A stretch of 64,000 nucleotides of DNA from a virus, in IMG/VR virus record IMGVR_UViG_3300046454_000714, positions 1 to 64,000 of that record. The stretch is one strand, 5' to 3'. This document shows, piece after piece, positions 10,390 through 37,750 of the stretch. The notes under the pieces are model-generated. The model was not told the origin of the DNA. It saw nothing but the letters and a program-made list of their open reading frames with translations, and did no database searches. The translations under genes and the position numbers were made by a program. Position 1 is the first letter of the stretch, and each line of letters opens with the position of its first letter.

Positions 10390-10397
10390 GGAGCCTC

Positions 10398-11183: not shown

Positions 11184-11518
11184 ATGCTCCCCTGACCTAC
11201 GACGATGTCCGCGGCCTCAAGCAGGACGGCGAGCTCGGCAAGTTCATCAAGTTCCACATGGGTGAAGCCCAGCGTGCCGCCGCCTACCGCCGCGGTCTGG
11301 TGCTGCGCTACCCGGAACTCGCCGCGAAGCTCGCCCAGCCGCCGATCGGCTTCTCGTCGCCCGAAAAGTGGAACGGCTACATCCCGCCGGCGACCGACTG
11401 CACCGGTGCCATGAACACCGCCCGCTGCCGCCCCGCCCTCATCGCGCTCGTTGCGGAAGCCGAACGGCGCCGCGACCAGCCGAAGGAGACCGCGGCGGAA
11501 CTTGAGGAGGCGGCGTGA
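11180..11518 (+). CDS. hypothetical phage protein
   Basis: GTGA coupling, codon bias. Confidence 0.65.
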   Translation: MNAPLTYDDVRGLKQDGELGKFIKFHMGEAQRAAAYRRGLVLRYPELAAKLAQPPIGFSSPEKWNGYIPPATDCTGAMNTARCRPALIALVAEAERRRDQPKETAAELEEAA

Positions 11519-11697
11519 ACGCCAACCGGCCGCCAGCCCAGCGCCTGCGAGAACTCCGCACCTGGGCTCGCACCGCCGCCTGCTGCCCCACCTGCCAGGT
11601 TGCACCAGGAACGCCCTGCCACCGCGGCGGCACAGCCCTCCCGGGCGGAGCCGTCCACGCCCGCCGCTACCAGGAAGCCGAGGTCACCGCCGCATGA
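11515..11697 (+). CDS. small zinc-finger protein
   Basis: CPTC...PGTPC...VHARR. Confidence 0.65.
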   Translation: MNANRPPAQRLRELRTWARTAACCPTCQVAPGTPCHRGGTALPGGAVHARRYQEAEVTAA

Positions 11698-12029: not shown

Positions 12030-12517
12030 CCACCTATCGCCCGACCCGAAGCTGCCCCCACCCCCTGTGTCGCCCGCTCCACCTGATCGCCGCCGCAGGG
12101 GCACTCCTTGCCGTCGCCGCCGTCGCCCCGTACAGCCCGTGGATCCTCGGCCTGCTCGCGGTCGGCGCCCTCTTCTCGGTCGGCATTTACCAGCTCGTGC
12201 ACCGCCAGACCATGGTCGCCAGCGTCAAGGAGGAGCTGAACCAGTCGGTCACGATCACGACCCGTCCGGCGTGGGTGCGCGCTGCGGTCGCCATGGACGT
12301 GATCTGGACTGTGCTCGTTCTGGCGACGCTCGCGTCCGTGCTCACCGACCGTTCGGCCTCCGGCCTGGGGGAGCCGAGCCGCCCCGCGCTGCTGGCGGCT
12401 GTGGCGGTCGGCGTCGCCCTCACCGTGACCGCGGAGGGCCTGCACCGGCGGGCGGTGCGTATCCAGCGGGTTCAGCCCGCCACCCCCGCCCCGCACCGCG
12501 ACAGCACCGCCGCCTAG
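12026..12517 (+). CDS. membrane protein (about 4 TM)
   Basis: Four hydrophobic segments, AAGGA RBS. Confidence 0.65.
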   Translation: MTTYRPTRSCPHPLCRPLHLIAAAGALLAVAAVAPYSPWILGLLAVGALFSVGIYQLVHRQTMVASVKEELNQSVTITTRPAWVRAAVAMDVIWTVLVLATLASVLTDRSASGLGEPSRPALLAAVAVGVALTVTAEGLHRRAVRIQRVQPATPAPHRDSTAA

Positions 12518-23932: not shown

Positions 23933-24511
23933 CTACTGCGGAAGCGATCGGGGCTTCGGTGTCTCGACCGCCTTGTTCGCGGCCCGGACGAGGGCGCCGA
24001 AGGCCTGATGGCTCATCTCCTCTCGAAGGATCTGCACGATCACAGAGGGCTGGTCCAGCGGCACGAGGGCGGCCCTGGGGTCGGGGCTGAACAGCGCCTT
24101 GTTGTACTTCCGCCACCGACGTAGCTCCTCGTGGAGCTGCTCGCGGTCGACGAGGATGTCGACCAGAGGATCCCGCTGATTTCGCATGAACCATGCACGG
24201 TGGAAGTAGCCCCTGAACCAGCCGCCAGGACCGCTACCAAACGGCGGGTGGATGTCAGGGTTTTCCAGCTGCCCAAGAGCGGTGTTGCACCAGCGGCAGA
24301 TCAGACCGCGCACGGCAGCATTGCCGTAGTGGTGGTCATGGTCGATGACGAGTCCCCGACGTGCGCCCTCTTGCGGCGGTTGGCCGCACGCTTCGCAGTT
24401 CCCACCGCTCCGCTCCCAGAGGGCCTCGAAGTCCTCGCACGTGAGCGCGTAAGTCTTGTGCGTATGGCAGTCGATGCCACTCTCGTGCTTCGACTTCCGT
24501 CGCAAATGCAT
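23933..24511 (-). CDS. endonuclease VII family protein
   Basis: Y.LT.EDF......CEACG, IDHDH...VRGLIC..CN..LG; GGAGG RBS. Confidence 0.85.
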   Translation of the reverse strand: MHLRRKSKHESGIDCHTHKTYALTCEDFEALWERSGGNCEACGQPPQEGARRGLVIDHDHHYGNAAVRGLICRWCNTALGQLENPDIHPPFGSGPGGWFRGYFHRAWFMRNQRDPLVDILVDREQLHEELRRWRKYNKALFSPDPRAALVPLDQPSVIVQILREEMSHQAFGALVRAANKAVETPKPRSLPQ

Positions 24512-24532: not shown

Positions 24533-24548
24533 ACTTGGATATCCAAGT
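24533..24548. promoter_or_regulatory. palindromic operator ACTTGGATATCCAAGT (putative GntR site)
   Basis: Perfect 16-bp palindrome identical to the core of the site at 25996-26017. Confidence 0.75.
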
Positions 24549-24625
24549 TGGCGCTCCGAAAGTAGCGCGGCTGTCGCGGAGCGTGCAAGTAGTGCGACGA
24601 ACTGGATGGTGGGTACCGTCACGGC

Positions 24626-25102: not shown

Positions 25103-25879
25103 ATGACACCGAACCCGGCACGAGAGCACCCCTACGAGAGGGTCGCCAACGAATTGCGCGCGGAGATCCTCAGGGGAGACCTCGCGCCCGGCGCGAAGCT
25201 GCCGTCCGAAAATGACCTCAAGGACCGCTTCGGCGTCACGCGGGCCACGGCGCGGAAGGGCATCGCCCTTCTCCGCATGGAAGGCCTCGTCACCTCGTTC
25301 CAGGGGAAAGGCGCGTTCGTCCGCGAGCGCCCGCACGTGAGCATGCGTCAGACCGGCAGCATCTACCGTGCGCGCCGATCGACTGGCGAGGCGAACTACA
25401 ACGCCGAGGCGAAGGCGCAGGGGCAGAGGCCCAAGCAGGTGATTCGCGAGGTCGTCGAGACGGACGCGCCGGAGAAGGTCGCGGACCGTTTCGGCGTCGA
25501 GCCCGGCGCTCCGGTGGTAGTCCGCCGCCTGCTGTTTACGGTCGACGACCAGCCCATGCAGCTCTGCGATAGCTACTACGAGCGCTCCCTTGCGGCTGGC
25601 ACGCCGCTTGCCGAGGCCAGGCTCATCAAGGGTGGCGCCAACTCGTTCATCGAAAACCCGGACGGGCCGATCGGTCGACGCATCGTCCAGTTCATCGAAG
25701 ACCTCGACATCCGGATGCCGTACCCGCACGAGATCGAGCTACTCGACATCCCGGCTGGCGTGCCCGTGGCGAAGGTGATGCGCACCGCTTACGACTCGGC
25801 GGGCGACGTCCTGGAAGTGCTCGACTCGATTGTTCCGTGCGATCGGCACACCTTCCGATACGTGATCGATGTGCCGTAG
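25103..25879 (+). CDS. GntR/HutC-family regulator with UTRA domain (KorSA-like)
   Basis: PY..VA..LR..I..G...PG.KLPSE..L...FGV.R.T.R, GKGAFVR; UTRA C-domain. Confidence 0.92.
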   Translation: MTPNPAREHPYERVANELRAEILRGDLAPGAKLPSENDLKDRFGVTRATARKGIALLRMEGLVTSFQGKGAFVRERPHVSMRQTGSIYRARRSTGEANYNAEAKAQGQRPKQVIREVVETDAPEKVADRFGVEPGAPVVVRRLLFTVDDQPMQLCDSYYERSLAAGTPLAEARLIKGGANSFIENPDGPIGRRIVQFIEDLDIRMPYPHEIELLDIPAGVPVAKVMRTAYDSAGDVLEVLDSIVPCDRHTFRYVIDVP

Positions 25880-25899
25880 TTCCTGCTCACGCTGCTGAT

Positions 25900-25931
25900 G
25901 CCCTCAACCGCCTTGCGGTTGGGGGCTTTTT
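25900..25931 (+). terminator. intrinsic terminator after GntR
   Basis: GCCCTCAACCGC-CTT-GCGGTTGGGGGC followed by TTTTT. Confidence 0.75.
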
Positions 25932-25995
25932 CGTTGCGCCCGGGCTTGTCGCAGCACTTGCATACCCAAGCTGCACTGGCTACGGTTGCACCAGT

Positions 25996-26017
25996 CGAAC
26001 TTGGATATCCAAGTTCG
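25996..26017. promoter_or_regulatory. 22-bp palindromic operator CGAACTTGGATATCCAAGTTCG
   Basis: Perfect palindrome ahead of the transfer operon; degenerate copy ACTTGCATACCCAAG at 25956-25970. Confidence 0.8.
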
Positions 26018-26057
26018 GAAACCAAGTCCTGACCTGCCCAAATGACCGGAGGCCTCT

Positions 26058-26315
26058 GTGCCCACGCCCAACGACGAACTCGCTGAAGAGCTCGCCCTGT
26101 TGCAGGGCGCGCTCAAGCCGGCAGAGGTCGCCAAGCTCCTGAAGGTCCACTCCGCGACCGTCTACCGCCTGATCGCCAGCGGTGAGTTGCCCTCCATCCG
26201 GATCGGCAGCGGCACCAAGCGCCGCACCGGCCTGAAGGTCCCGCAGTCCGCCGTCATCAAGTACCTGCGCAGCTCCCGTACCGCCCCGGCCCTGCCCGCC
26301 ACGGAGGTGGCCTGA
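26058..26315 (+). CDS. excisionase-like HTH_17 protein
   Basis: LKPAEVAKLLKVHSATVYRLIASGELPSIRIG. Confidence 0.85.
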   Translation: MPTPNDELAEELALLQGALKPAEVAKLLKVHSATVYRLIASGELPSIRIGSGTKRRTGLKVPQSAVIKYLRSSRTAPALPATEVA

Positions 26316-26316
26316 C

Positions 26317-26634
26317 ATGCCGATCACCACCGCAACCCCGCCCCGCACCCCGCAGTTCCACTACGCGTCGATGCGCAACGCCGAGCAGTCGGCCCGCAGC
26401 ATCTCGACGCAGTTGTCGGTGCGCGGCTTCCTCACCGGTCTCGCCGATGAGACATCGGCCGCCGAGTTCGCCAAGCTGAAGGCGACCCGCACCAGCTACT
26501 ACTTGCTCGCCCTGGCGCACCGGAACGCGGCCCGCCGCCTGGAGCGCGGCCAGCGCATCCGGTCCCGTGTCGAGCGGATCGTGCGGCCGGTTGTCCGTGG
26601 CGCGCTGCGAGTCGGCCGGGCGGTGACGGCATGA
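26317..26634 (+). CDS. hypothetical protein
   Basis: GGAGG RBS, coupling. Confidence 0.65.
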   Translation: MPITTATPPRTPQFHYASMRNAEQSARSISTQLSVRGFLTGLADETSAAEFAKLKATRTSYYLLALAHRNAARRLERGQRIRSRVERIVRPVVRGALRVGRAVTA

Positions 26635-26846
26635 GCACCGCAACCGCCGCCCCGGCCCTGACCCTCGCCGTGAACGTGTACCGGACTGCGTCGGCTCGTA
26701 CCGCGGAACTGTCGGCGGTCACGGATTCCCGCGACCTGACGCCGGGCGAGTCCGACTACCTGGCCCACGCGCAGGACATGCTGGCCGCCGCCAAGGCGAC
26801 CCTCGTCCGCGCCGGCCGCCTCGACCTCATCGGGGTGGTGGCATGA
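26631..26846 (+). CDS. hypothetical protein
   Basis: Coupled at both ends. Confidence 0.6.
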   Translation: MSTATAAPALTLAVNVYRTASARTAELSAVTDSRDLTPGESDYLAHAQDMLAAAKATLVRAGRLDLIGVVA

Positions 26847-27079
26847 GCCCCGCCGACGTTGCCGCGCACATCGCGGCCCAGGGCCCGGTTCGCACCCGCC
26901 CCGTCGCAACTCCGCAGCGCACGGTCCTGGAGCGTTTCCCGGCTGGCGCCCCGCGGGGCCAGTGGCCGGCGGAGTCCTTCGCCGCGGACCGTCGCCGCGA
27001 GGGTGTTCCGGCCCGCGTGGTCATGGACCTCAACTCGGACGCGTTCCTCGTGATCGTCGAGGCCGGTGATCCCCGATGA
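26843..27079 (+). CDS. hypothetical protein
   Basis: Coupled; RFPAGAPRGQWPAE motif. Confidence 0.65.
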   Translation: MSPADVAAHIAAQGPVRTRPVATPQRTVLERFPAGAPRGQWPAESFAADRRREGVPARVVMDLNSDAFLVIVEAGDPR

Positions 27080-27252
27080 GCTTCCCGATCCCGGACCCGT
27101 CGCCGGAGGAGGAGTTGGCGGCCAGCGTGGACGACATCTTCCTCGGCTGGTGGCCCGACGACTTGATGGCCATCGTCCGCGCCCCGTACACGGGTGGCGC
27201 CCTCGCCGCCTATGCGCACATCGACGGCGGCAAGTACCTGCCGCCGGAGTAG
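27076..27252 (+). CDS. small hypothetical protein
   Basis: ATGA coupling, 58 codons with high GC3 (below ORF-track cut-off). Confidence 0.5.
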   Translation: MSFPIPDPSPEEELAASVDDIFLGWWPDDLMAIVRAPYTGGALAAYAHIDGGKYLPPE

Positions 27253-27356
27253 CGCCCCCAAGACCGCCGCGGGTGGGTCGACAACCCCCCGTCCCCGCCC
27301 GCGGTGCCCAACCCCGCCCCACCCCATCCGCTCCTGCTGACCAGAGAGGCTCCGTC

Positions 27357-27596
27357 ATGTCTTCCACCGCCCACCCCACCGCCCAGTCGGCCCCGGCGAC
27401 GGCCACCGTCGAGCTCTTCTGGGTGATGACCGTACAGACGGCCGACGGTCGCGTGAACACCCGGACCGCCGTGCTCACGGTCCCGGTCGGGTTCACCCGC
27501 GCCGAGGCGTTCGGGTACGTCTTCGCGCAGTTCAAGGAGGCCTACGGCAGCCCACTCACGGTCCTTTTCTTCGACCTCGCCGAGAACAAGATCTAG
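27357..27596 (+). CDS. hypothetical protein
   Basis: GAGG RBS, codon bias. Confidence 0.65.
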   Translation: MSSTAHPTAQSAPATATVELFWVMTVQTADGRVNTRTAVLTVPVGFTRAEAFGYVFAQFKEAYGSPLTVLFFDLAENKI

Positions 27597-27641
27597 CTCC
27601 GCCCCACCCCCACTGCTCCTGCTGATCCGAAAGGGATCCCC

Positions 27642-27875
27642 ATGTCTCCGTTCGTCCTGTCCGACGCCGATCTGGCCGTCACGACCCAGCTGGCCGCGCG
27701 CCGTCGGGAGCGCACCACGGTCGCGGATGCGTTCACCGAGTTGTTCGGCGACGACTTCACCCGCGCCCTGTACCGGGAGACCACGTATGCGGTGCCGGAT
27801 TCGGAGCGGCAGACGTGCCCGGTGCACCAGGACTGGCGGATGGACTGCCAGCACCTGCACCTGAAGGCCGCCTGA
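27642..27875 (+). CDS. hypothetical protein with CPVH..W..DC motif
   Basis: RBS, codon bias. Confidence 0.65.
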   Translation: MSPFVLSDADLAVTTQLAARRRERTTVADAFTELFGDDFTRALYRETTYAVPDSERQTCPVHQDWRMDCQHLHLKAA

Positions 27876-28027
27876 TGTCCGGCCGGAAGCGCGACGACGC
27901 GCCGCCGAAGCCCCCGCCGACGCCCGACCCCGCCGCAGTCGCCCGCGCCAAGCGTGAAGCGGACGCCCTGCGCACGACAGCCCGGGAGCTGCCGGAGATC
28001 GACCCCGCCGACGCCAAGTACTGGTAG
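27875..28027 (+). CDS. small hypothetical protein
   Basis: TGATG coupling. Confidence 0.5.
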   Translation: MSGRKRDDAPPKPPPTPDPAAVARAKREADALRTTARELPEIDPADAKYW

Positions 28028-28053
28028 CCAACCCCGCCCCGAGAGAGGACGCC

Positions 28054-28251
28054 ATGTCTCGCTTCACAGTCACCCGCCGCGGCGCATCCGGCCCCGGCGA
28101 GGGCGGCCAGTACACGTACAGCACCCGCGCCGACAGCCCCGCCGAGGCGGTCGCCAAGACCGCCGCCAAGGCGGAGCGGCTGCATCACCGCATCAACCGG
28201 GGCGGCACCGTCCTCGACCCGGAACCCACCGACATCACCCGCATCGACTAG
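28054..28251 (+). CDS. hypothetical protein
   Basis: GAGGA RBS. Confidence 0.65.
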   Translation: MSRFTVTRRGASGPGEGGQYTYSTRADSPAEAVAKTAAKAERLHHRINRGGTVLDPEPTDITRID

Positions 28252-28261
28252 GGAGCCCGCC

Positions 28262-28528
28262 ATGTCCAAGCCTTCCTGGCTACCGAGCCAGCTCGCCGAC
28301 CGCGCCAGCGCCGCCGACGCCCTTGGTGCCGCAGCCGACCAGTCCAACCTGTGCCGCAGCATCGCCGACGGCCTGCACGCCCAAGGTCGCGACCACTACG
28401 GCGACCCGACCCACACGGCGGCCGTCGTCGAAAGCCACCGGCTCGGCGAGATCGCGGAGGCGCACGGCTTCAACGGCCAGGACGTCATGGACGAAGCCGC
28501 CCGGCGCCGCGGCCTGACCACCACCTAG
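28262..28528 (+). CDS. hypothetical protein
   Basis: GGGAG RBS. Confidence 0.65.
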   Translation: MSKPSWLPSQLADRASAADALGAAADQSNLCRSIADGLHAQGRDHYGDPTHTAAVVESHRLGEIAEAHGFNGQDVMDEAARRRGLTTT

Positions 28529-28643
28529 ACGCCGTGGTGCGGGTCACCATCCCCCGGCCCGCGCCACGGCCTGCACGCCCATCCACCCCACCCGCGGGTG
28601 GGGGCGCGCACCGCACCAACCCTTCAATCCGAGGAGATACCGC

Positions 28644-28811
28644 ATGACAAGCACTGAGTGGGACGCGATGGAACTCGGCGGACAAAACCGGTCCGCGTCG
28701 GGCGTGACCGAAGGCCCCGACGGCGACTTCACGGCCGTCGCCGACTCGGCCGAAGCCGAGCTGAGCGCCCAGTTCGGCGGGCGCTGGGCGGTGCTGGGCG
28801 ACGAGCGCTGA
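28644..28811 (+). CDS. small hypothetical protein
   Basis: GAGGAG RBS, 55 codons. Confidence 0.55.
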   Translation: MTSTEWDAMELGGQNRSASGVTEGPDGDFTAVADSAEAELSAQFGGRWAVLGDER

Positions 28812-28995
28812 ACCCCTGATCGCCGGGCGCGGGTCTCCCCCGTCTCGTGTCCGGCTCGCCGCGCTGGCGGGCGTCAACGGCTCCCCGCCGTTCCGCCAGC
28901 GCGGCCCAAGCCCCGGCCTGGCCGAACGCGGGCCACGCATCAACCGCAGACCGGGGCGCGCACCACCACCGACCGCCAAACCGAGAGGACCCCGC

Positions 28996-29148
28996 ATGAC
29001 ACGCAAGAACGAGGACGTCGACTTGACCACCCCGGAGAACGTCGCCAAGGGCCAGAAAGTCTACGACCGCATCGTCGCAGGCGAAATCCCCGCCGGGAAG
29101 GTCGGCCCGACGCTCGACGCCACCTACGGCCGCAAGCGCAAGGCCTGA
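28996..29148 (+). CDS. small hypothetical protein
   Basis: GAGGA RBS, 50 codons. Confidence 0.55.
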   Translation: MTRKNEDVDLTTPENVAKGQKVYDRIVAGEIPAGKVGPTLDATYGRKRKA

Positions 29149-29152
29149 GCCG

Positions 29153-29299
29153 ATGGCCCGCAAGGAGTGCGCGCAGTGCGTGGAGCACGCCCGCCTGCAC
29201 TCCGGCAACTGGCTCGGCATCGGGCGTGACAACGATCCGTGCCCGCCCTGTGAAGACCACGCCCGCAATGGGTGCGGCCTGGACCGCAAGGAGAAGTAG
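29153..29299 (+). CDS. small Cys/His protein (pRL2-8-like)
   Basis: ECAQC..H...H.......CPPCEDH..NG. Confidence 0.55.
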   Translation: MARKECAQCVEHARLHSGNWLGIGRDNDPCPPCEDHARNGCGLDRKEK

Positions 29300-29925
29300 T
29301 GCCAGGCAAGGCGAAGGACATTACAGGCGTGAAGTTCGGGCGCTTCCTGGTCGTCAAGCGAGACGGAAGCAACAGGGACGGTTCTGCGCGCTGGGAATGC
29401 GTCTGTGACTGCGGCACCCGCAAGACGGTCGGCGGCCGGGAGCTTTGGCGAGGAAGGACCATCTCTTGCGGATGCCTCAACGCGGAGATACTCGCCAACC
29501 GCGCCAGGACGCACGGAATGAGCGGCCATCCGGCGTACCAGTCGTGGGTGGAGATGCGCACCCGGTGCCACAACTCCAGCAGAGACAGCTACCAGGACTA
29601 CGGCGGTCGCGGCATTCGAGTCTGTGACCGCTGGCGCGATTCGTTCGAGAGCTTCTGGGCCGACATGGGGTCCACCTATGAGCCCGGCCTGACGATCGAC
29701 CGGATCGACGTGAACAAGGGCTACGAGCCCGGCAACTGTCAGTGGGCGACCCGTAAGCAGCAGAACCGAAACACCCGCCGCAACATGATGATCCAGTTTC
29801 GCGGTGAAACGCGCTGTCTTGGCGAGTGGTGCGAGCTGCTTGACCTTCCCTACCACTCGATCTACACGCGCCTCAGTCGCGGCTGGCCAGTCGAACGAGC
29901 CCTGACCGAACCGATCCACCGCTGA
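29299..29925 (+). CDS. HNH homing endonuclease
   Basis: DITG.KFG, WECVCDCG, SCGC, THGMS, YGGRGI.VC.RW, TIDRIDVNKGYEPGNCQWAT. Confidence 0.9.
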   Translation: MPGKAKDITGVKFGRFLVVKRDGSNRDGSARWECVCDCGTRKTVGGRELWRGRTISCGCLNAEILANRARTHGMSGHPAYQSWVEMRTRCHNSSRDSYQDYGGRGIRVCDRWRDSFESFWADMGSTYEPGLTIDRIDVNKGYEPGNCQWATRKQQNRNTRRNMMIQFRGETRCLGEWCELLDLPYHSIYTRLSRGWPVERALTEPIHR

Positions 29926-30007
29926 CCAGCTGCCCGATCCGCCCGTCTCGCACGGGCGGTGAGGGGAACCGCGCCAGCGCTTCCCACCCCAACCCGAGAG
30001 GAATCCC

Positions 30008-30178
30008 ATGGCATTCGGACGCAAGGCCGCCGAGAAGCTCGACTCCGCCGCCGCCGCACTCCACAAGGTCGGCGGGAAGGCCGGAGACGCCGTCGCCAAC
30101 ACCATCCTTGCCCCCGCCCGCTCCCGCATCAACGAGTCCTGCACCAACTGCGACAAGGGCAAGTGCAAGACCCACTGA
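30008..30178 (+). CDS. small hypothetical protein
   Basis: GAGGA RBS, C-terminal CxxC..C..H. Confidence 0.55.
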   Translation: MAFGRKAAEKLDSAAAALHKVGGKAGDAVANTILAPARSRINESCTNCDKGKCKTH

Positions 30179-30207
30179 CCGAACCAACCCCCGAGAGGAG
30201 CCCCCCC

Positions 30208-30720
30208 ATGCAGGTCAACACCTACGCCATCGGCCCGGCCCGACGCCCCGTCCTGGACCGGGTGTGCGCCATCGCCGACCAGGCCGCCGCGCTCGTCGAG
30301 AACGAGATGGGCGTGCGCCTGCACGGGGTGGAACTCCTCGTCACCGACACCTACTTCACCCGCCGCCTCGCCGGTGACGACGACGGCCTGTACGGCTGCA
30401 CCTTGTACGGCCTCGACCGGGTCCTCGCCGTCGTCAACGCCCAAGCCCACCTCACCGATCCGGCCGAGGTCGACAAGACCGTCATTCACGAACTCGTGCA
30501 CGCCGCGCAAATGCTGCGACCGGGCGTGCGGCGGGTCGAAAAGTTCCGCACCGACGAAGCCCTGTCCCGGCTCCCGGCCCCAGCCCTGGAGCAGTACGAC
30601 GCGTGGTGGGACGACAGCGAAGCCCAGGCCTGCGAGCTGGAGCGCCTCGCCGCCCACCTCGACCCCACCGCTGGGCCCGTTCGTATGGCCCGGCGCACAC
30701 CCATCCACACCATCGCCTGA
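30208..30720 (+). CDS. putative zinc metallopeptidase
   Basis: TVIHELVHAAQ (HExxH) plus downstream E; GAGGAG RBS. Confidence 0.65.
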   Translation: MQVNTYAIGPARRPVLDRVCAIADQAAALVENEMGVRLHGVELLVTDTYFTRRLAGDDDGLYGCTLYGLDRVLAVVNAQAHLTDPAEVDKTVIHELVHAAQMLRPGVRRVEKFRTDEALSRLPAPALEQYDAWWDDSEAQACELERLAAHLDPTAGPVRMARRTPIHTIA

Positions 30721-30737
30721 CCCGAGAGGAGCCCGTC

Positions 30738-31034
30738 ATGCACGCCTATCTGATCACCGCGAAGCCCGGCCGGCTGCACCTCGCTGCCCGGTTCGCGGGC
30801 CGGTGGGCGCTGCGGGCCCTCGCCCTGACCGTCATGTGCGCGCTGGGGGCGGTCGTGTTCGCGGTCCGCTTCGCACGCCCGGTCATCAACTACGCGGCCA
30901 CCCGCATGGCGTGGCTGGAGCTGTGGGCCGCCTCGGTGACCGGGATCGGGCCGCTCGGGGCCGCTTTCGGCGCTGGGTTCACCGACGAACTCATCAAGGA
31001 ATTCCACCGCGCCCGCACCGGCGCGCCCGCCTGA
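30738..31034 (+). CDS. membrane protein
   Basis: GAGGAG RBS, hydrophobic segments. Confidence 0.65.
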   Translation: MHAYLITAKPGRLHLAARFAGRWALRALALTVMCALGAVVFAVRFARPVINYAATRMAWLELWAASVTGIGPLGAAFGAGFTDELIKEFHRARTGAPA

Positions 31035-31046
31035 GAGGAGCACCGC

Positions 31047-31502
31047 ATGAAGAAGTACAGCGTGACCTGGCCGGTACGCCCGTCCGGCACCTACAGCGTC
31101 TATGCCCACGCCATCGACCCTACCGACGCGGTCCGTGCCGCCGCCGAACGGGACATGCCGACCGCGCCCGGCTACACCCTCGCCTTCGACTATGAGCCGG
31201 AGGTGTGGCGCCTCAAGTGGCCGTACCGGATGCGCTCGCAGCACGTTGCAGGCCCCGAGTTCCAGGACGAGGTGGACGGCGAGGTCGGCTTCACGCCGGA
31301 GCCGCTCGATCTGAACGCGATCGCCGCCGACGTCGTGTCCGTGATCCGCGTCTGCGACGCCCACGACCACTGCAAGGACGTGACCCGAACTGCAGTCGGC
31401 CAGATCGTCGGCAACCTGATCCCGGCCGAGGCTGAGCGAGTCCTGGCCATCGTCGCCGCCGAGACCAGCGAGATCAACGCGTACACGGGCGGGTGGGCCT
31501 GA
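31047..31502 (+). CDS. hypothetical protein
   Basis: GAGGAG RBS. Confidence 0.65.
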   Translation: MKKYSVTWPVRPSGTYSVYAHAIDPTDAVRAAAERDMPTAPGYTLAFDYEPEVWRLKWPYRMRSQHVAGPEFQDEVDGEVGFTPEPLDLNAIAADVVSVIRVCDAHDHCKDVTRTAVGQIVGNLIPAEAERVLAIVAAETSEINAYTGGWA

Positions 31503-31708
31503 TGCCGATCACGTTCCGTAAGAGCTTCCGGATCCTGCCCGGCGTCCGCGTCAACGTCAGCCGGAACAGCCGGTCGATCACGTTCGGCGGCAAGAACACG
31601 CCGCACTACACGCGCAGCAGCACCGGCCGCCGCACCACGTCGTGGAACCTCCCCGGCGGATTCGGCTGGCGCAAGACCACGACCCGACGCAGCCGAGGAG
31701 GCCGCTGA
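31502..31708 (+). CDS. DUF4236-like protein
   Basis: FRKSFRILPGVRVNVS..S.S.T.G. Confidence 0.75.
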   Translation: MPITFRKSFRILPGVRVNVSRNSRSITFGGKNTPHYTRSSTGRRTTSWNLPGGFGWRKTTTRRSRGGR

Positions 31709-31709
31709 C

Positions 31710-31919
31710 ATGCGTTTTCTCGCCGCCCTGAACGGCCGGTACACGCTCCGCCAGTCGGCTCTGATCCTGCTGCCGACCATCGCCATGCTGCTCGTCGCGC
31801 AGTCCATCGCGATGGCGGCCGGTGCCGGTCACTTGCCCGCAGAGGTGATCGCCCTGACTGCCACCTTCGGCACCTTCTTCGCGATGACGACCGTCATCAA
31901 CCGCCGCACCCGCACCTGA
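31710..31919 (+). CDS. small 2-TM membrane protein (Spd-like)
   Basis: GAGGAGG RBS, two TM helices. Confidence 0.65.
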   Translation: MRFLAALNGRYTLRQSALILLPTIAMLLVAQSIAMAAGAGHLPAEVIALTATFGTFFAMTTVINRRTRT

Positions 31920-31941
31920 ACCGAGAGGACACCGAACCGTC

Positions 31942-33291
31942 ATGACCGTCAGCCCGCCCCAGACGAACGGCCACAAGCGGCCGGCCCTGCCCGTAATCGG
32001 GGACTGGCGGCCGGTCACACCCCAGCCCGAGCCCGTCGAGGAACAGCGCAGCCCGGAGCCGGCCCCCGTTGAGACGCCGGAACTGGTCGCCAAGGCGCAG
32101 GCCGAGGCAATCCGCGCCCAAGCGTGGGCCGACGCCGAAGCCAGGCGGATCGCCGCCGAGGCTGAAGCGGACGCGGTGCGCGTCAAGGCGGAGGAGGAGG
32201 CGCGCAAGCTGCGGCTCGTCAACGACCGCGCCGAGCGCCGGGCTCGCGAGGAAGAAGCTGCGTCCGAGGAGCGCATCGCCGAGTCCAACCGGCGCCGCGA
32301 CGAGGCCGAGCGGGCCCGCATCGCCGCCGCCCACCAGGCCCGGATCGACGAGCAGGTTGAGGCCCAGAAGGCGAAGGTCGTCGCCAAGGCGGACAAGAAG
32401 TGGCGCGGCTGGGCCATCGCCTTCTACACCCTGTGCGCCGCCGTCGCCCTACCGGTCCAGATCTCCGCGTTCTGGGACGAGCGCAAGCCGTGGATGGCCG
32501 GCGCCCCTGTCCTTCTGGAGATCGCCGCTCTCGTTGTCGCGTTCGGTACCGCCGCCGCGGTGGCGAACAAGCGCCCGCACTGGCACTTCCGTCTGATCAC
32601 CTGGGTGCTCGCGTTCATCGCGGCCAGCGTCAACCTGTGGCACGGCATGCAGGAGTTCGACCCGGCAACCGCCGTCGGTACCGCGCTCGCCTCCGTGTTC
32701 GGGCCCGGCGTGTGGGACCTGCATGAGCACGGGCGGATCCGTAAGCGCGACGGCGTGCCGACCCGGCGGGAGCGGAAGGCGCAGGAGAGGGCGGCGAAGG
32801 ACGAGGTCAAGCGGGCAGCTGCCGAAGAGGCACAGCGCGCCGCCGAGAAGGAGGCTGCAGCCAAGGCCGCCGAGGAGGCTGCGAGGAAGCTCGCCGATCG
32901 TCGCGCGAAGCTCTTCTCGAAGGTGTGGGAGCACGCCGAGAAGCTCGCCACGGATCTTGGCGAGACAGCCGTGACCGAGGCCATCTGGGAGCGCGCCAAG
33001 CTCGACGTCGAGGGCGCGCGGCCGGGCGAGTCGGCGGAGGTTTTCCGCATGCGTAACGCCGCCGAAGCGAGGGTCTCGGCGGCCCGCGAGAAGCGCTCCG
33101 TGAGCGGATCAACACAGCAGGTCGCTTCGCAAGTGCTCGGCTCCAAGATGCCTCGCGTCTACAACCCGCCCGCACGCCCCGGACGGCGCACCAAGGGCGA
33201 CGTGAAATACGCGCCTGGCGCCAGCCGTCAGGCATCCATCGCGGCCCGTGAAGCCGTCGCCAAGAAGACCGCCCAGAAGGACCCGTCATGA
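31942..33291 (+). CDS. SpdB2/DUF2637-like spread membrane protein
   Basis: Coiled coil, about 4 TM, coiled coil; directly upstream of and coupled to TraB. Confidence 0.65.
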   Translation: MTVSPPQTNGHKRPALPVIGDWRPVTPQPEPVEEQRSPEPAPVETPELVAKAQAEAIRAQAWADAEARRIAAEAEADAVRVKAEEEARKLRLVNDRAERRAREEEAASEERIAESNRRRDEAERARIAAAHQARIDEQVEAQKAKVVAKADKKWRGWAIAFYTLCAAVALPVQISAFWDERKPWMAGAPVLLEIAALVVAFGTAAAVANKRPHWHFRLITWVLAFIAASVNLWHGMQEFDPATAVGTALASVFGPGVWDLHEHGRIRKRDGVPTRRERKAQERAAKDEVKRAAAEEAQRAAEKEAAAKAAEEAARKLADRRAKLFSKVWEHAEKLATDLGETAVTEAIWERAKLDVEGARPGESAEVFRMRNAAEARVSAAREKRSVSGSTQQVASQVLGSKMPRVYNPPARPGRRTKGDVKYAPGASRQASIAAREAVAKKTAQKDPS

Positions 33292-35387
33292 GCCTCGACA
33301 TGAACCCGGAACTCCCGCCCGGCTGGGACCTGACGAAGGTCATTCCCGGTGAGCTCGAAGTCCCCGACGACCTGTCCGGGGAACTCGACGACGACATCGC
33401 GCCCGGCATGCTCCTGCCCTACGAGCCGCGGCTGCCCGTCCTGCGGAAGACCGGGTCGGCGGCCATGGTCGTCGCCGCCACGACCGGGCGCGCGGTCGGA
33501 CTGTCGGCGCGCGGCGGCTGGACGGCGACCCGCTGGTTCGTCGCCGGCGCCCGCGCCGTCTCCTACCTCGGTTGGCGCTATGTCCGCACGCACGACTACC
33601 AGGAGGAGATCGGCGGCGTCACCTCGTCGGCCGACCACCGGCGCAACGTCGACCTCCGACACCGGCGGTGGAAATTCCTCGGGTGGGCGGCCGGCGCGAC
33701 GGCGGCGCTCAATCTGGCCGGCTGGTGGGCGCTCGTTGCCCAGGCCGGGATGGCCGCTTCGGACTCGTGGTGGATCACGCCGGGCGTGCTCGCCCTGTCC
33801 GTGGCCGCCGCCGTCAGCTGGTACGGGCGCTACCGGCTCGGCAACCCAGGCCTCGCGCCCGAGCAGGCGATGGCGGACCAGGACGACCCGGAGTCGGATG
33901 AGCCGTTCCCGCTCGGCGTATGCCAGTCGCCGAGCCAAGTCGAAGAGTGCGTGTCCCGCGCACTCGCCTGGGAAGGCATCGGCACCCGCGCGGTTCGCGT
34001 GCTCGGCTACCGCGGCTGGGGCTGGGAGATCGACGTCATCCTCAAGGGCGCGGCGCCGGAGCAGGTCAACGCCGTGATGAGCAAGCTGGACTCCCACTTC
34101 GGCATCGGCAAGGGGCAGACCCTCTGCGAGCCGGACCCGGAGGACAACTCGCACCTCACGCTGCGTCTCGTGCAGTCGGATCCGTTCGCCGACATGCCCC
34201 GCCCGGCCGTGCACTCGCCGAACAGTCTGTCCGTGAAGGATGCGGTGGTGTACGGCCGCTGCATGGACGGCACTCTCTTCGAGGCGCGCCTGCGCGGAAT
34301 GTTCATGATGATCATCGGTTCGTCCGGGTCGGCGAAGACCAAGGGCGCACTGCGCTGCCTCGCCGAGGTCATCACCGCATGCCGGGACGCCATCGCCATC
34401 GAGATGGACCCGGTCAAGGACGGAATCCGCGAGTTCTCCGAGGTCATGGCGCTGCCGCCGATCCGCGGGCCGAAGGAGTGCACGGAGAAGCTGCGCTGGC
34501 TGCGCGATATCGCGTCGGCCCGCAACCAGGTGAAGTCGGCCAAGGAGATGGGGGACCTGTGGGAGCCCACCCCCGAAGAGCCCGCCATCTTCGGCATCGT
34601 TGACGAGTTCATCTTCCTGCCGCGCGAGGCGAAGGAGCTCGCCATTGAGATCCTCCGCATCGGGCGCGAGACCGGCGTCTACCTCCTCTTCGCCGCCCAG
34701 GAAGCCACGCAGGACTCCCTCGGCGACGCCATCGCCAGCGCCGTCACCTACCGGGTGATGCTCGCCGCGCGCAGCGAGGACATCCCCCTCGTCCTGGGCA
34801 AGGGGGCTTCCGCGATGGGCTACCGCCCGGACCGGTTGCGCCCGGCCGTCGATGACGAGCGGGTGTACGACGCCGGCAAGTTCTACGTCGCCGGCCCCGG
34901 CTTCGACCGGCCGGTGTTGTGGCGGTGGAACCGGTTCGAGCGCGACCAGATCCGGCAGGCGGTCAAGGACCGCAAGGACGCCGGCCGCCCTTGGTTCGAC
35001 CATGCCAGCCTTGCCGCCGCCAACCTGCTGCACGTGATCCGTCGGGACGGGGTGGCGGGTGGGGCCTCTCTGGCTGACCGCCTCGTTGCCCTCGATGAGC
35101 AGGGCGGCGTGGAGGACGCGGCGGTGGTCGCCGTCCTGCTTCGGGCCTTCGGCGGCAAGACGTTCCTGCCGACGACCGAGGAACTGCTTCCCGCGCTTGC
35201 CGACGCAGGCGTCCAGATGGATGCGAATGGTCTTGCCCAGCTCTTCCGGAAGCATGCCCCGTCGGTGACTGCGAGCCGTCAGGAGTGGGATGGCCGGCCG
35301 CAGGTCCGCGGCTGGTCCCGGGAGTCCGTCGAGCAGGCCGCAGCAGGGCTGTTGGACCCGGCTATGGCCCGTCTACGGGCCGCCTAA
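33288..35387 (+). CDS. traB: TraB-like FtsK/SpoIIIE conjugal DNA translocase
   Basis: Two N-terminal TM helices, Walker A variant GSSGSAKT, Walker B GIVDEF, GRETGVYLLFAAQ, C-terminal wHTH ending ..VRGW. Confidence 0.8.
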   Translation: MSLDMNPELPPGWDLTKVIPGELEVPDDLSGELDDDIAPGMLLPYEPRLPVLRKTGSAAMVVAATTGRAVGLSARGGWTATRWFVAGARAVSYLGWRYVRTHDYQEEIGGVTSSADHRRNVDLRHRRWKFLGWAAGATAALNLAGWWALVAQAGMAASDSWWITPGVLALSVAAAVSWYGRYRLGNPGLAPEQAMADQDDPESDEPFPLGVCQSPSQVEECVSRALAWEGIGTRAVRVLGYRGWGWEIDVILKGAAPEQVNAVMSKLDSHFGIGKGQTLCEPDPEDNSHLTLRLVQSDPFADMPRPAVHSPNSLSVKDAVVYGRCMDGTLFEARLRGMFMMIIGSSGSAKTKGALRCLAEVITACRDAIAIEMDPVKDGIREFSEVMALPPIRGPKECTEKLRWLRDIASARNQVKSAKEMGDLWEPTPEEPAIFGIVDEFIFLPREAKELAIEILRIGRETGVYLLFAAQEATQDSLGDAIASAVTYRVMLAARSEDIPLVLGKGASAMGYRPDRLRPAVDDERVYDAGKFYVAGPGFDRPVLWRWNRFERDQIRQAVKDRKDAGRPWFDHASLAAANLLHVIRRDGVAGGASLADRLVALDEQGGVEDAAVVAVLLRAFGGKTFLPTTEELLPALADAGVQMDANGLAQLFRKHAPSVTASRQEWDGRPQVRGWSRESVEQAAAGLLDPAMARLRAA

Positions 35388-35493
35388 CCCCCGTCTTTGC
35401 CCCGTCTATGGCCCGACTAGGCGATCAAGAGAAGCCGCAGGTAGCCGGGCCATAGACGGGTCTTAGTCGGGCCAAAGACGGCCCATAGACACC
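35357..35493. repeat. clt-like array: 6 direct + 5 inverted copies of CCCGTCTATG-like unit, 11-bp period
   Basis: Direct copies start at 35357, 35368, 35379, 35390, 35401, 35412; inverted copies at 35440, 35451, 35462, 35473, 35484. Confidence 0.85.
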
Positions 35494-35537
35494 CTATTGA
35501 TCCACATATGCGAAGTTCTTGAGAGGGAGTCCCGATC

Positions 35538-36173
35538 ATGGCAGCGAAGCGTCCCGCAAGGCGGCAGCCGGCCCGCCGCAAAGCCCCGGCGCGCCGCCGC
35601 ACCACCGCGACCGCCACCCGACGGAAACACCCCGCCCGACGCGTCAAAATCCCCCGCAAAGGACCGCTCACCGCCCGCCTCGGCAACTGGCTCGTCCTGC
35701 GAGTCATCGCCCCCATGGTCGACACCCGGCGGGATGAGATCCGCTCCCGCAAGGACGCCGCGATCCTCCGCGCCACCCACGAGGGCTGCAAGGTCTGCCA
35801 CGGCAACGGACAGATCTTCACCAAGGGCAAGGACGGCTCCTTCACCGGATCGAAGCCCTGCACGGCCAAGCCGACCAAGGAGAAGGTCTCCCGCTGGGAG
35901 GTCAACAAGGCCGCCCGCATGGGGGGCGACCGGCGGACCGGACTCATTGGCTACTCGTGCCCCTGCGGCAAGAAGGAGAAGCCCCGCTACCGCGACGCCA
36001 AGGAAGCCACCAAGGCCCTGCGCGGCCACGAGAAGCAGAAGCACGGCGGCAAGAGCGTCGGCGGCACCTGGTACGCACAGCAGACCGCGGCGGCAGCCCT
36101 CGCCCCCTCGCAGCCCGCACCCGCACCCAAGACCAGCATGCGTAAGGCGCCGGCGAAGGCAGGCACCCCGTGA
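35538..36173 (+). CDS. basic hypothetical protein with Zn-binding motifs
   Basis: GGGAG RBS; C..C.GNG and CPCG...H...H. Confidence 0.7.
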   Translation: MAAKRPARRQPARRKAPARRRTTATATRRKHPARRVKIPRKGPLTARLGNWLVLRVIAPMVDTRRDEIRSRKDAAILRATHEGCKVCHGNGQIFTKGKDGSFTGSKPCTAKPTKEKVSRWEVNKAARMGGDRRTGLIGYSCPCGKKEKPRYRDAKEATKALRGHEKQKHGGKSVGGTWYAQQTAAAALAPSQPAPAPKTSMRKAPAKAGTP

Positions 36174-36373
36174 CCCCGACTCTTCTGTGCCCGCGCGGCT
36201 GCGGAACCGGCTTCGCCTCGATCACCAACGAGTTCGAGCCGCTCCAAGGCCGCGGCAACAACGGCATGGCGATCATGACCGTCACCGGCGAATGCAACGG
36301 CTGCGGACTCCTCTGCGACAACGAGATCGAAGGCCGACTCGAAGAACTCACCATCGTCACCCGAAACGGATAG
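36170..36373 (+). CDS. small Zn-ribbon protein
   Basis: CPRGCG...CNGCG; coupled. Confidence 0.55.
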   Translation: MTPTLLCPRGCGTGFASITNEFEPLQGRGNNGMAIMTVTGECNGCGLLCDNEIEGRLEELTIVTRNG

Positions 36374-36396
36374 CCCACCCGAAGGAGACCCGCACC

Positions 36397-36885
36397 ATGC
36401 TCGACCTGCCCGAGCCGAAGCCCACCGCCACCGCGACCGGGCAGGACCGCAACGCCATCATCGACCAGCGCGCCGACCAGTTCCTCGCCGCCATCAACGA
36501 CGCCGCAGCCACCTACTACCGCGACGACAGCCCGACCCCCACCGTCGGCACCACCCCACCCGTACCCCAGCCCGGCCGGCCGCCGATGAGCCAGAGAGCC
36601 ACCGACGCCAGCGCGTTGATGCTGTCCGGCGGCATCGCCTCCGTGTTCGTCAGCGGCGGCATCAGCCTCATCCTCTGGTCGTCCGGGCACGCCGATTCGA
36701 CCGTCATCGCCTGGATGAGTGCTGGCCCGCCCATGGCCTTCCTGTCGCTGAAAGCCCTCATCAAGGGCGTCAAGCGCGCGACCGTACCCGACATCCACGT
36801 GCACAACTACAGCGGGCCCGTCACCCAGCACCACCGCACCTCGAACAACCGCAGCATCTGGAACAAGAACATCAACAGCCAGTGA
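36397..36885 (+). CDS. SpdD-like 2-TM membrane protein
   Basis: AAGGAG RBS; Pro-rich segment, 2 TM, HVHNYSGPV.Q tail. Confidence 0.65.
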   Translation: MLDLPEPKPTATATGQDRNAIIDQRADQFLAAINDAAATYYRDDSPTPTVGTTPPVPQPGRPPMSQRATDASALMLSGGIASVFVSGGISLILWSSGHADSTVIAWMSAGPPMAFLSLKALIKGVKRATVPDIHVHNYSGPVTQHHRTSNNRSIWNKNINSQ

Positions 36886-36897
36886 AGGAGCCCCGCC

Positions 36898-37143
36898 ATG
36901 TTCCATCCCGAGCTCGGCCCGATCGCCCGCCTGTTCATCGCCGTCGCCGTGTTCGCCCCGTCGCTGTCCGCCGGATACGCCGTGACCGTCGCCCTGATGG
37001 CGGTCGGCGTGCCGGAGATTGTCGCCGCGGTTCCGGCGGCGCTCACCGCCCTCGCCGGGATTCTCGCCCTCACCTACGGCGCCGAGTCCCTCGCCAACTG
37101 GCGGGCCGACGCGGTCGCCACGAAGGGAGCAGCGGGCGCCTGA
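36898..37143 (+). CDS. small membrane protein
   Basis: AAGGAG RBS, two TM helices. Confidence 0.65.
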   Translation: MFHPELGPIARLFIAVAVFAPSLSAGYAVTVALMAVGVPEIVAAVPAALTALAGILALTYGAESLANWRADAVATKGAAGA

Positions 37144-37388: not shown

Positions 37389-37664
37389 CTACTCGGCTGG
37401 CGGGTCGGCCCGTTTGCCCGTGGTGCGCCCCTTGGCGATCTGGTGGGCGCGGACGCGGTGGACTCCCAGCTCCTTGCCGATCTGGTCGTAGCTGAGCCCG
37501 GTCTCGTGCATCTCCTGAACGGCGCCCTGCCGGATCTCCTGGAGCCAGTGCTGTAGCTCAGGGATCGCTTGGAGCGCAGCCCCGACGCTCTTGGCGCGCT
37601 CGGTCGGATCTCCCTGCTCGGCAAGGTGCTTGAGGTTCTCGAAGGGGCTCGGCGGCGTCGTCAT
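37389..37664 (-). CDS. HTH regulator (probably leaderless)
   Basis: GLSYDQIGKELGVHRVRAHQIAKG; TACAAT box just upstream of ATG. Confidence 0.8.
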   Translation of the reverse strand: MTTPPSPFENLKHLAEQGDPTERAKSVGAALQAIPELQHWLQEIRQGAVQEMHETGLSYDQIGKELGVHRVRAHQIAKGRTTGKRADPPAE

Positions 37665-37670
37665 GGATCG

Positions 37671-37714
37671 ATTGTAAGGGGTGGCTTGACGATTGCAAGG
37701 GGACCCCTTACGAT
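37671..37714. promoter_or_regulatory. overlapping divergent sigma70-type promoters with operator repeats
   Basis: + strand TTGACG-17-TACGAT (37686-37714); - strand TTGCAA-16-TACAAT (37698-37671); repeated AAGGGG..C(C/T)T. Confidence 0.75.
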
Positions 37715-37750
37715 TGAGGCATCGCCAAGGGAACCAGCAGGGGAGACGGC

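Follow-up and report, generated by a model that had tools for sequence, protein, structure and literature searches.

The IMG/VR virus record IMGVR_UViG_3300046454_000714, a single sequence of 87,527 bases (~87.5 kb), reads as the genome of a temperate, integrase-bearing Streptomyces siphophage of ~87.5–90 kb. In the window analysed here, positions 1–64,000 of that record, the early region holds a predicted cassette for translocating double-stranded DNA (dsDNA), of the type found on Streptomyces plasmids and actinomycete integrative and conjugative elements (AICEs). The cassette joins a TraB-like pump with an FtsK fold to a membrane protein built like SpdB2 and, directly after the pump gene, to an array of octamers placed like the clt site of those plasmids. 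Among related phages the array changes together with the C-terminal end of the pump. We propose, at a probability of about 0.6, that the phage genome moves from cell to cell through this built-in pump, a reading drawn by analogy with the plasmid systems.

This kind of element is already known from the plasmid-phage pZL12. What is new is its syntenic presence throughout a lineage of integrating phages and the exchangeable nature of the cassette, pump plus site. The literature we searched contains no description of a prophage lineage with a TraB–clt cassette, or of specificity swapping. An earlier reading of the window, made from its letters alone (hereafter the sequence-only reading), had proposed a conjugation module spanning 25.1–37.1 kb. 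The conserved core proves to be the part at 30.7–36.9 kb, not that whole block.

The predicted pump, its membrane partner and the octamer array

The central parts of the cassette are as follows (coordinates are those of the window; + is rightward).

31942–33291, +: 449-aa protein of SpdB2-like architecture; its stop codon overlaps the traB start (ATGA)
33288–35387, +: predicted 699-aa TraB-like dsDNA translocase (FtsK-fold motor, Walker A and B, C-terminal winged-helix-like domain)
35357–35419, +: six forward octamer units, repeating at exactly 11 bp; traB's final codons and its stop fall within the first three
35420–35441: spacer of 22 bp, ending CGCAGG
35442–35490, −: reverse array: 4.5 octamer units, again with an 11-bp period, that are the forward units in reverse complement

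The sequence-only reading took the 699-aa protein for a TraB-like FtsK translocase. The FtsK fold bears this out, as does plasmid_TraB being the best NCBIfam family, while the protein falls outside the curated TraB family itself. It matches phrog_12531 ('FtsK/SpoIIIE-like') at 2.4e-69, a family that PHROGs places in the class 'moron, auxiliary metabolic gene and host takeover', and is 30–35% identical to Streptomyces plasmid proteins, one of them on NC_006912. Its Walker A and Walker B segments align to FtsK, and Walker B carries VDEF. The AlphaFold2 model, with a mean predicted local distance difference test score (pLDDT) of 63.7 and low confidence over the N-terminal 200 residues, matches FtsK motor domains (Foldseek E 5.2e-13; TMt 0.63 to the E. 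coli FtsK motor, 2ius). The next Foldseek matches are the conjugation coupling protein TcpA and the type VII secretion ATPases EssC/EccC. As modelled, the protein would be an FtsK/SpoIIIE-type motor with both Walker motifs. Three N-terminal helices (residues 56–74, 133–157 and 160–178) are weakly hydrophobic (Kyte-Doolittle 1.07–1.27) and lie where model confidence is low. Residues 571–699, folded alone, reach pLDDT 82 and show a helix-helix-helix-hairpin layout.

Spd-like membrane proteins had also been predicted for this region. A Kyte-Doolittle scan recovers membrane proteins at 30738–31034, 31710–31919, 31942–33291, 36397–36885 and 36898–37143, and the 449-aa protein among them has both the architecture and the operon position of SpdB2. 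The published description gives SpdB2 four transmembrane helices, preceded by a coiled-coil N-terminal part and followed by a C-terminal domain, and places its gene in a tra/spd operon (PMC4447253). The 449-aa protein has a charged, Ala-rich N-terminal part, four hydrophobic helices within residues 159–260 (159–177, 190–208, 218–236 and 242–260) followed by a basic C-terminal part. Over 109 aa the membrane core shows 33% identity (E 5e-15) to the RefSeq DUF2637 protein encoded upstream of TraB on plasmid NZ_CP029602.

The repeat array expected directly after the translocase gene lies at 35357–35490 and comprises 5.7 forward and 4.5 reverse units on an 11-bp period. In all, 11 octamers form two opposed arrays across 134 bp, overlapping the translocase stop codon; clustered ~8-bp repeats at or near a tra gene are the mark of clt. 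The array is no accident of composition, because all three exact copies of the octamer in the 64 kb, and 8 of the 49 one-mismatch copies (a window-wide count at the 45.7 expected in shuffled sequence), fall within these 134 bp. The inverted arrays could fold into a strong hairpin (−39 kcal/mol; single-stranded DNA fold z-score −5.4). Across 35200–35700 we found no sigma-70 promoter, intrinsic-terminator pattern or T-run.

Covariation and conserved position in related phages

To place the cassette among its relatives we used five IMG/VR phages, whose pumps are 60–91% identical to the one studied here, and 16 loci drawn from species-representative genomes. In 21 relatives we read 175 bases around the pump stop. 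Opposed, ~11-bp-phased arrays are present in 20 of them, the miss being a locus with a truncated pump gene (L027). The octamers fall into three families: the window shares CCGTCT with nine relatives, eight others have TGCTCR and three CCCGGY. Motif density is 23–51 per kb at the traB stop versus 0.4–5.0 per kb in the rest of the locus, and motif spacings are mostly 10–12 nt or multiples of 11.

Octamer family goes with the C-terminal end of the pump. Pumps of group B (TGCTCR) are 50–58% identical to the studied pump over the N-terminal part versus 22–28% over the last 110 aa. Groups A and C have related C-termini, yet different octamers. Beyond the 21 relatives, an array is present at six of seven loci (the miss is L092), among which four alternative pumps with other C-termini are followed by arrays of CCCGGAC or CGGTAGAG; the motif types number at least five. 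CCCGGAC, from one phage type, resembles what we take to be the octamer of pSVH1.

Natural phage pairs separate the array from its surroundings. In the relative G005 the flanks are 94–100% identical to the window as proteins and 90–97% as DNA, while traB is 74.9% identical and the segment corresponding to 35048–35525, which spans the C-terminal domain and the array, cannot be aligned; its array is of type B. G012 shows the same pattern with a type-C array. These near-isogenic phages show that traB and its array are swapped together. For the gene upstream of TerL, identity is 99% and 95% in G005 and G012, whose arrays are of other types, and 28–33% in G001 and G002, whose array type is that of the window. 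The 211-aa basic protein encoded downstream is 97% and 88% identical in G005 and G012 despite their differing arrays. Array type follows the 3' part of traB, not the gene upstream of TerL or the downstream basic protein, and covariation with the TraB C-terminus is the behaviour expected of a clt. We consider it highly probable that the pump C-terminus and the array form a protein–site pair of the TraB–clt kind. So large a number of specificity types hints at selection against moving the DNA of a rival.

Two features around the pair vary in their own way. The SpdB2-like protein is 33% identical in L003 and L004, whose pumps are 91% identical, and 77% identical in G005, whose pump is 66% identical; by this mismatch the membrane partner is shuffled independently of the pump. 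The element CGCAGG(T) adjoins the arrays in most motif types and is inverted (GACCTGCG) in L091. In L005 (traB stop at 12079) the 22-bp spacer between the arrays is the reverse complement of 35420–35441 at 17 of 22 positions, counted by eye, as if it had been flipped between the inverted arrays.

The core also keeps its place in the phage genome. Its four genes, encoding the 98-aa membrane protein, the SpdB2-like protein, the pump and the 211-aa basic protein, are syntenic in all five IMG/VR relatives, where they lie between shared phage genes, and mostly so in the genome loci, where they occur in 13, 13, 16 and 14 of 16, respectively. Three of the genome loci are on complete chromosomes of 8.4–8.9 Mb, and in some the terminase and portal follow within 10 kb of the core. 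The pump is intact (641–704 aa) in 20 of the 21 read at the stop codon, and also in L095 and L096. At L027 (Streptomyces albidocamelliae NZ_CP106795.1, ~10000–11600) only pump residues 345–695 match and no array follows; an integrase 80% identical to that of the element lies at the same place on the other strand. This locus may be a decayed or rearranged copy.

Relatives gathered through the portal (52 loci) extend the comparison to other pumps. Three of the 13 large contigs tested matched the pump. Five contigs with no or weak match were tested further for alternative FtsK-like open reading frames (ORFs), and all five carry another ORF, of 693–923 aa, with an FtsK_SpoIIIE-like stretch. Judged from coordinates, the alternative pump of G006, G007, G009 and G011 lies 13–20 kb upstream of the portal, which is the syntenic place. 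At 3535–6111 of L092 (from G009, portal 91% identical) an ORF of 858 aa resembles FtsK weakly over one stretch (E 1.8e-4) and has no array after it; a 681-aa ORF lies directly upstream.

We conclude, from sequence comparison, that the module is the phage's own rather than an AICE inserted into it, because no integrase was recognised in it, its flanking repeats are of chance length, it occupies the same position in relatives and its pump is intact. No integrase family appeared among the block proteins scanned (10 with Pfam and 10 each with NCBIfam and PHROGs, the smallest ORFs being partly uncovered), in keeping with the sequence-only reading. A search for att-like repeats gave a longest flanking direct repeat of 13 nt, the chance level set by ~180 random region pairs (176 tallied; mode 13–14 nt). 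The GC profile shows no step at the block ends. Phage genes flank the block on both sides, as had been noted: early genes upstream (a PD-(D/E)XK nuclease, an AAA_24 protein, N6 and C5 methylases and an IstB-like loader), and the terminase and SPP1-type portal downstream.

Regulation, neighbouring genes and the virus record

The remaining features of the operons and of the record are listed here.

24533–24549: predicted operator palindrome, copy 1, between the leftward Endonuclease VII gene (23933–24511) and the rightward PNPOx–GntR pair
25103–25879, +: GntR/UTRA (HutC-type) regulator (Pfam GntR 2.4e-19, UTRA 1.2e-20)
25956–25972 (degenerate) and 25998–26015 (perfect): predicted operator palindromes directly upstream of the rightward operon
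26058–26315, +: small DNA-binding protein with HTH_17 domain (excisionase/MerR-type), first gene of the operon
26317–29299, +: ~12 small ORFs of 48–105 aa without a predicted membrane helix
29299–29925, +: HNH homing endonuclease within the operon (phrog_374, 5.6e-72)
30208–30720, +: HExxH-motif protein of 170 aa; its SprT-like and M76 matches are all below threshold
30738–31034, +: 98-aa membrane protein, first gene of the conserved core; hydrophobic segment at residues 25–43
31047–31919, +: three small proteins of 151 aa, 71 aa (very basic) and 69 aa (two membrane helices)
35538–36173, +: conserved gene that follows the array; its 211-aa product is very basic (53 K+R) and has Cys pairs
36170–36373, +: 67-aa Cys-rich protein, 97% identical in L095
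36397–36885, +: 162-aa membrane protein, homologue of pZL12.70c (phrog_19266, 2.2e-47)
36898–37143, +: final gene of the rightward operon, encoding 81 aa with three hydrophobic helices
51840–53459: TerL, a weak Pfam match
53475–54860: SPP1-type portal (Pfam 3.2e-49)
64367–69655 of the record: long open frame of 1762 aa
86584–87525 of the record: tyrosine integrase, at the right contig end

Palindromic operators had been predicted near the GntR gene, and a perfect 16-bp palindrome indeed occurs twice, in identical copies at 24533–24549 and 25998–26015 that stand before both operons; the copy at 25956–25972 is degenerate. The regulator had been called KorSA-like. It does have the domain type of TraR/KorA/KorSA, a GntR helix-turn-helix (HTH) domain plus UTRA, and lies beside the transfer operon with its repeated palindromes, but it is not a conserved member of the cassette: it occurs in one of five viral and 4 of 16 genome loci, at 28–34% identity. 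Its identity to the GntR proteins adjoining the tra operons of plasmid NZ_CP029602 and pZL12 is 28–29%.

The Xis-like HTH protein described earlier corresponds to the HTH_17 protein at 26058–26315 (Pfam 6e-12), and the train of small ORFs to the ~12 that follow it, which are mostly unmatched in relatives. A 48-aa Cys-rich ORF directly precedes the HNH endonuclease gene. The endonuclease has no tblastn match in 28 relative loci; it is a passenger, and our reading does not depend on it. The 170-aa HExxH protein occurs in some relatives only (89–96% identical in L003, L004 and L095), the 71-aa basic protein in 8 of the 16 genome loci, and the 162-aa membrane protein, 42% identical to the product of pZL12 58006–58455, in nine. 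For the 211-aa protein there was no match in Pfam, PHROGs or NCBIfam, only a protein Atlas lead of 0.87 to an unnamed cluster. The same three collections returned nothing for the 449-aa, 98-aa, 151-aa and 170-aa proteins, apart from the sub-threshold Pfam matches of the last.

Directly after the transfer operon, at 37389–37750, a leftward gene for a 91-aa HTH protein lies opposite a rightward gene with an 86-bp gap between them. This gap, near 37.7 kb, holds a 20-nt inverted repeat (37663–37682 / 37703–37722) and a tandem 21-nt repeat. The arrangement looks like a second, Cro/CI-style switch.

Genes of the record were called with a codon model trained on the record itself, which gave ~159 genes, nearly all on the + strand; G+C in the window is 64–72%. 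Terminase, portal and tape-measure genes are all present in the 87.5 kb, and a further integrase fragment and a serine resolvase lie near the tyrosine integrase. Both contig ends fall within open frames and do not overlap (an end-versus-end comparison gave at most 12 nt shared), so that the record may fall ~2.5 kb short of the full genome. The close IMG/VR relatives measure 86.6–90.6 kb; of two that CheckV rates 100% complete, G001 is listed as a provirus and G002 carries direct terminal repeats. The element occurs in 24 sequencing runs, all of DNA and all from rhizosphere or root metagenomes of 2023. Megablast of 25–45 kb against 50,697 phage records gave no match, which leaves no close deposited phage in that collection; the best portal match there, to phage Kromp, is 60% identical.

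Two further observations concern the record at large. The gene after the portal (54863–56854) matches an intein-splicing domain at 2.4e-6, below the Pfam cut-off. Endonuclease VII is encoded twice, at 23933–24511 (Pfam 1.4e-15) and 79990–80469 (1.3e-16), with one copy adjoining the GntR operator and the other the serine resolvase.

Known systems, rival readings and a proposed second route for phage DNA

Streptomyces plasmids offer the closest likeness. In TraB/clt plasmids, clt is reported to consist of short repeats, direct and inverted, that lie at the 3' end of tra or reach into it; the clt of pWTY27 is described as including 16 bp of traA, with 8-bp repeats read by a winged HTH domain of TraB (PMC3583192, PMC4447253). 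For pSVH1, TraB and the Spd proteins are the reported mechanism for moving dsDNA across the membrane or cross-wall (PMC4447253). The phage cassette shares with these plasmids and AICEs (pSVH1, pIJ101, pJV1, pWTY27) a putatively membrane-anchored FtsK-like pump and an operon with GntR and Spd-like proteins. Plasmid NZ_CP029602 (L002, 21590–21750) likewise has four to five CTCTAC units, then inverted GTAGAG units, directly after traB. Unlike on these plasmids, the carrier here is a complete tailed phage and the arrays are strictly 11-bp phased in two opposed blocks.

The pZL12 precedent cited by the sequence-only reading is real. Its tra locus is reported as required for transfer, which needs the tra gene plus two genes next to it (PMC3583192). 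Like the present record, pZL12/phage ZL12 (GQ919031, 90,435 bp) is a tailed-phage genome of similar size with an FtsK-like tra gene (pZL12.71c), large and membrane proteins upstream of it, a divergent GntR gene heading the operon and a homologue of 36397–36885 just downstream. This locus is presumably the one named traA–traC. Both phage genomes carry a tra locus, and the two loci are analogous with one gene (36397–36885 and pZL12.70c) in common. The differences are larger. Only 12 of the 159 proteins match (E<1e-4), the translocases remaining unmatched in that tblastn search; pZL12 has ParA and ParB and is annotated as circular, whereas here no ParAB is seen among the proteins scanned, a tyrosine integrase is present and relatives sit in chromosomes. 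Nor does pZL12 have an array directly after tra: a 9-bp-period array (4.6 copies; L009 7799–7838) lies ~800 bp downstream, beyond pZL12.70c. By these comparisons the element is of a different lineage from pZL12.

Among phages, SpdB2 homologues on phiC31 and VWB were pointed out by Thoma et al., who suggested that they aid the spread of phage DNA, the idea that we propose here too; as far as that source describes them, the two phages have an SpdB2-like gene only, without a TraB-like pump or clt (PMC4447253). The 449-aa protein is not close to the SpdB2 of phiC31 or VWB, since it has no tblastn match in the phage collection. Homologues of the pump in deposited phages (89 records, 30–37% identity, E ~1e-55 to 1e-60) come from Streptomyces phages of 120–136 kb, with Jay2Jay, Coruscant and others sharing the pump family phrog_12531.

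From these likenesses we propose the following mechanism. The GntR/UTRA regulator would bind the two identical palindromes and silence the rightward (26058–37143) and leftward operons until relieved. Once expressed, the rightward operon would yield the small membrane proteins, the SpdB2-like protein and the TraB-like ATPase, whose order, fold and translational coupling can be read directly from the genes and the model. The winged-helix-like C-terminus of TraB would then read the 11 octamers, set on one helix face in opposed arrays, as covariation and exchange as a unit lead us to expect. Finally, a ring of TraB would pump the ds phage genome, excised or replicating, by way of a channel across a membrane or cross-wall, so that it reaches the adjoining compartment or a hypha in contact and spreads without particles, by analogy with pSVH1 TraB/SpdB2 and the pZL12 tra locus.

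Several results weigh against this proposal. As to the pump, it scores 35.6 bits (E 3.9e-9) with plasmid_TraB (NF041214), whose cut-off is 800, and finds no match to Pfam FtsK_SpoIIIE (PF01580) at E<=0.01; a PDB profile search with 28 homologues reached FtsK chains only at E 0.005. Its Walker A (34317–34340, residues 344–351) has Ala in place of the canonical Gly before Lys, so that ATPase activity may be altered. Unlike the pumps of TraB/clt plasmids it is thus both low-scoring and deviant in Walker A; the Ala recurs in group B, while group C, a BE-type phage, plasmid and pZL12 proteins have Gly, and the proteins of the 120–136 kb phages keep the canonical motif. Structural neighbours of the C-terminal domain are nearly all winged-helix but weak (Foldseek E 0.09; VIA Z 5.5, where a clear match is ~8), with no fold match at E<=0.001 and FtsK gamma absent among the VIA matches listed. 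The 449-aa partner has no Pfam match even at E<=10 and no tblastn match (E<=1e-5) in the 50,697 phage records. Only one of the five alternative FtsK-like ORFs exceeds the Pfam cut-off. No ParAB or plasmid-type Rep was found among the proteins scanned: there is no match to pZL12 ParA/ParB and none in the ~50 proteins run against Pfam (~100 small proteins lay outside that scan). An integrated element would therefore need excision and replication before transfer. Lastly, in Jay2Jay, the one of the 89 records inspected, the pump gene stands alone among tRNA genes, with no SpdB2-like match in the 17.6-kb locus and no TRF array in 3.6 kb, which implies that the pump family also works outside a conjugative setting.

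Other readings would assign the parts of the cassette differently. The repeat region might serve the small terminase as pac or cos, act as an operator for the protein encoded downstream, form an iteron origin or terminate transcription, for it lies between two genes and can form a strong hairpin, and phased short repeat arrays are known at origins and pac sites as well. Yet array type is independent of the gene upstream of TerL, by position the candidate small terminase, and of the downstream basic protein; it follows the 3' part of traB, and there is no terminator pattern or T-run. We reject a pac/terminase site, given that TerL-upstream proteins 99% and 95% identical go with different arrays and proteins 28–33% identical with the same one, and an operator of the 211-aa protein, given its 97% and 88% identity where arrays differ; this family of readings is very improbable. 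Still less credible is an independent AICE or plasmid fragment inserted in the prophage and moving, now or once, on its own. The gene set does resemble an AICE transfer module, down to an excisionase-type HTH after GntR. AICEs, however, are defined in Ghinet et al. 2011 by Int, a Rep (RepSA, RepAM or Prim-Pol) and a PF01580 Tra within 30–60 kb flanked by att (PMC3218068), whereas here Tra falls below PF01580, the integrases lie ~50 kb away, a full virion module is present and no RepSA, RepAM or Prim-Pol family occurs among the proteins scanned. We reject the insertion: the block has no integrase among its scanned proteins, no att-like repeats beyond the 13 nt of chance and no step in GC, its core stands at the same place in 5/5 viral and 13–16 of 16 genome relatives, and relatives with other translocase types also keep one 13–20 kb upstream of the portal (from coordinates).

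Two readings concern what the device does. FtsK reads polar 8-bp KOPS words with a C-terminal winged helix and converges on dif. The phage pump might read its opposed arrays in the same manner and, as vegetative or sporulation septa close, clear or deliver across them the phage genome in its replicating or excised form, so that each compartment or spore inherits a copy and nothing moves between individuals. The motor fold is that of FtsK, joined here too to a putative winged-helix-type reader of short polar words; the two arrays converge on a spacer between them that has a short conserved element; ParAB was not found in the parts scanned; and G002 has the direct terminal repeats expected of a free or circular form. 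In contrast to KOPS, the words form one 134-bp cluster on a mobile element rather than a chromosome-wide skew, and no dif-like recombination site is shown at the array centre. The partners, moreover, are plasmid spreading genes (SpdB2-like, small membrane proteins, pZL12.70c-like); the chromosome-borne relatives, the provirus G001 and the integrase indicate an element that, if integrated, is inherited with the chromosome and needs no such device; and fast specificity swapping among near-identical phages fits competition between elements better. We judge vertical segregation unlikely. Host manipulation or exclusion, in which the FtsK-like protein would alter septation, development or DNA handling, or block rival DNA, with the repeats as an autoregulatory or loading site, seems to us more unlikely again. 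According to one suggestion, phages use ftsK, parB and ssgA to manipulate the development of Streptomyces (PMC10117723), and both the PHROGs class and the homologues in 120–136 kb phages, with Jay2Jay lacking array and SpdB2-like match over the spans given above, agree with such a role. A host-directed protein would nevertheless have no need of a private 11-unit site that is swapped along with its DNA-reading end; the exact octamer is confined to the array within the 64-kb window, and conserved coupling to a four-helix membrane protein points to a channel.

Within the favoured reading, cell-to-cell movement through a built-in pump, intramycelial spread of phage DNA is as good an account as conjugation proper, because the nearest deposited homologues belong to 120–136 kb phages and Jay2Jay has no SpdB2-like neighbour or array. 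A broader proposal is doubtful but possible: that a widespread Streptomyces phage lineage of ~90 kb uses a TraB/SpdB2 channel as a regular second infection route, that the DNA-reading end of the pump and its octamer form an exchangeable specificity cassette moving the phage's own genome and not that of a co-resident rival, and that the lone homologues in large BE-type phages are the same device used during infection. Such a particle-free route would be comparable to that served by the movement proteins of plant viruses.

Streptomyces grow as connected hyphae, and we know of no mechanism by which phages pass the internal cross-walls. The finding extends the single case of pZL12 to a lineage that includes proviruses, complete free genomes and copies in sequenced Streptomyces chromosomes, with an FtsK-like pump kept at the same place in every relative tested. 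Natural phage pairs that are near-identical except for traB and array provide a handle for swap tests of binding specificity, particle-free transfer and cross-mobilisation. If transfer is true, plaque-based host ranges would understate the reach of these phages, and the cassettes would offer orthogonal protein–site pairs for moving large DNA between actinomycetes. Prophages would then have to be added to the conjugative elements behind gene flow in antibiotic producers.

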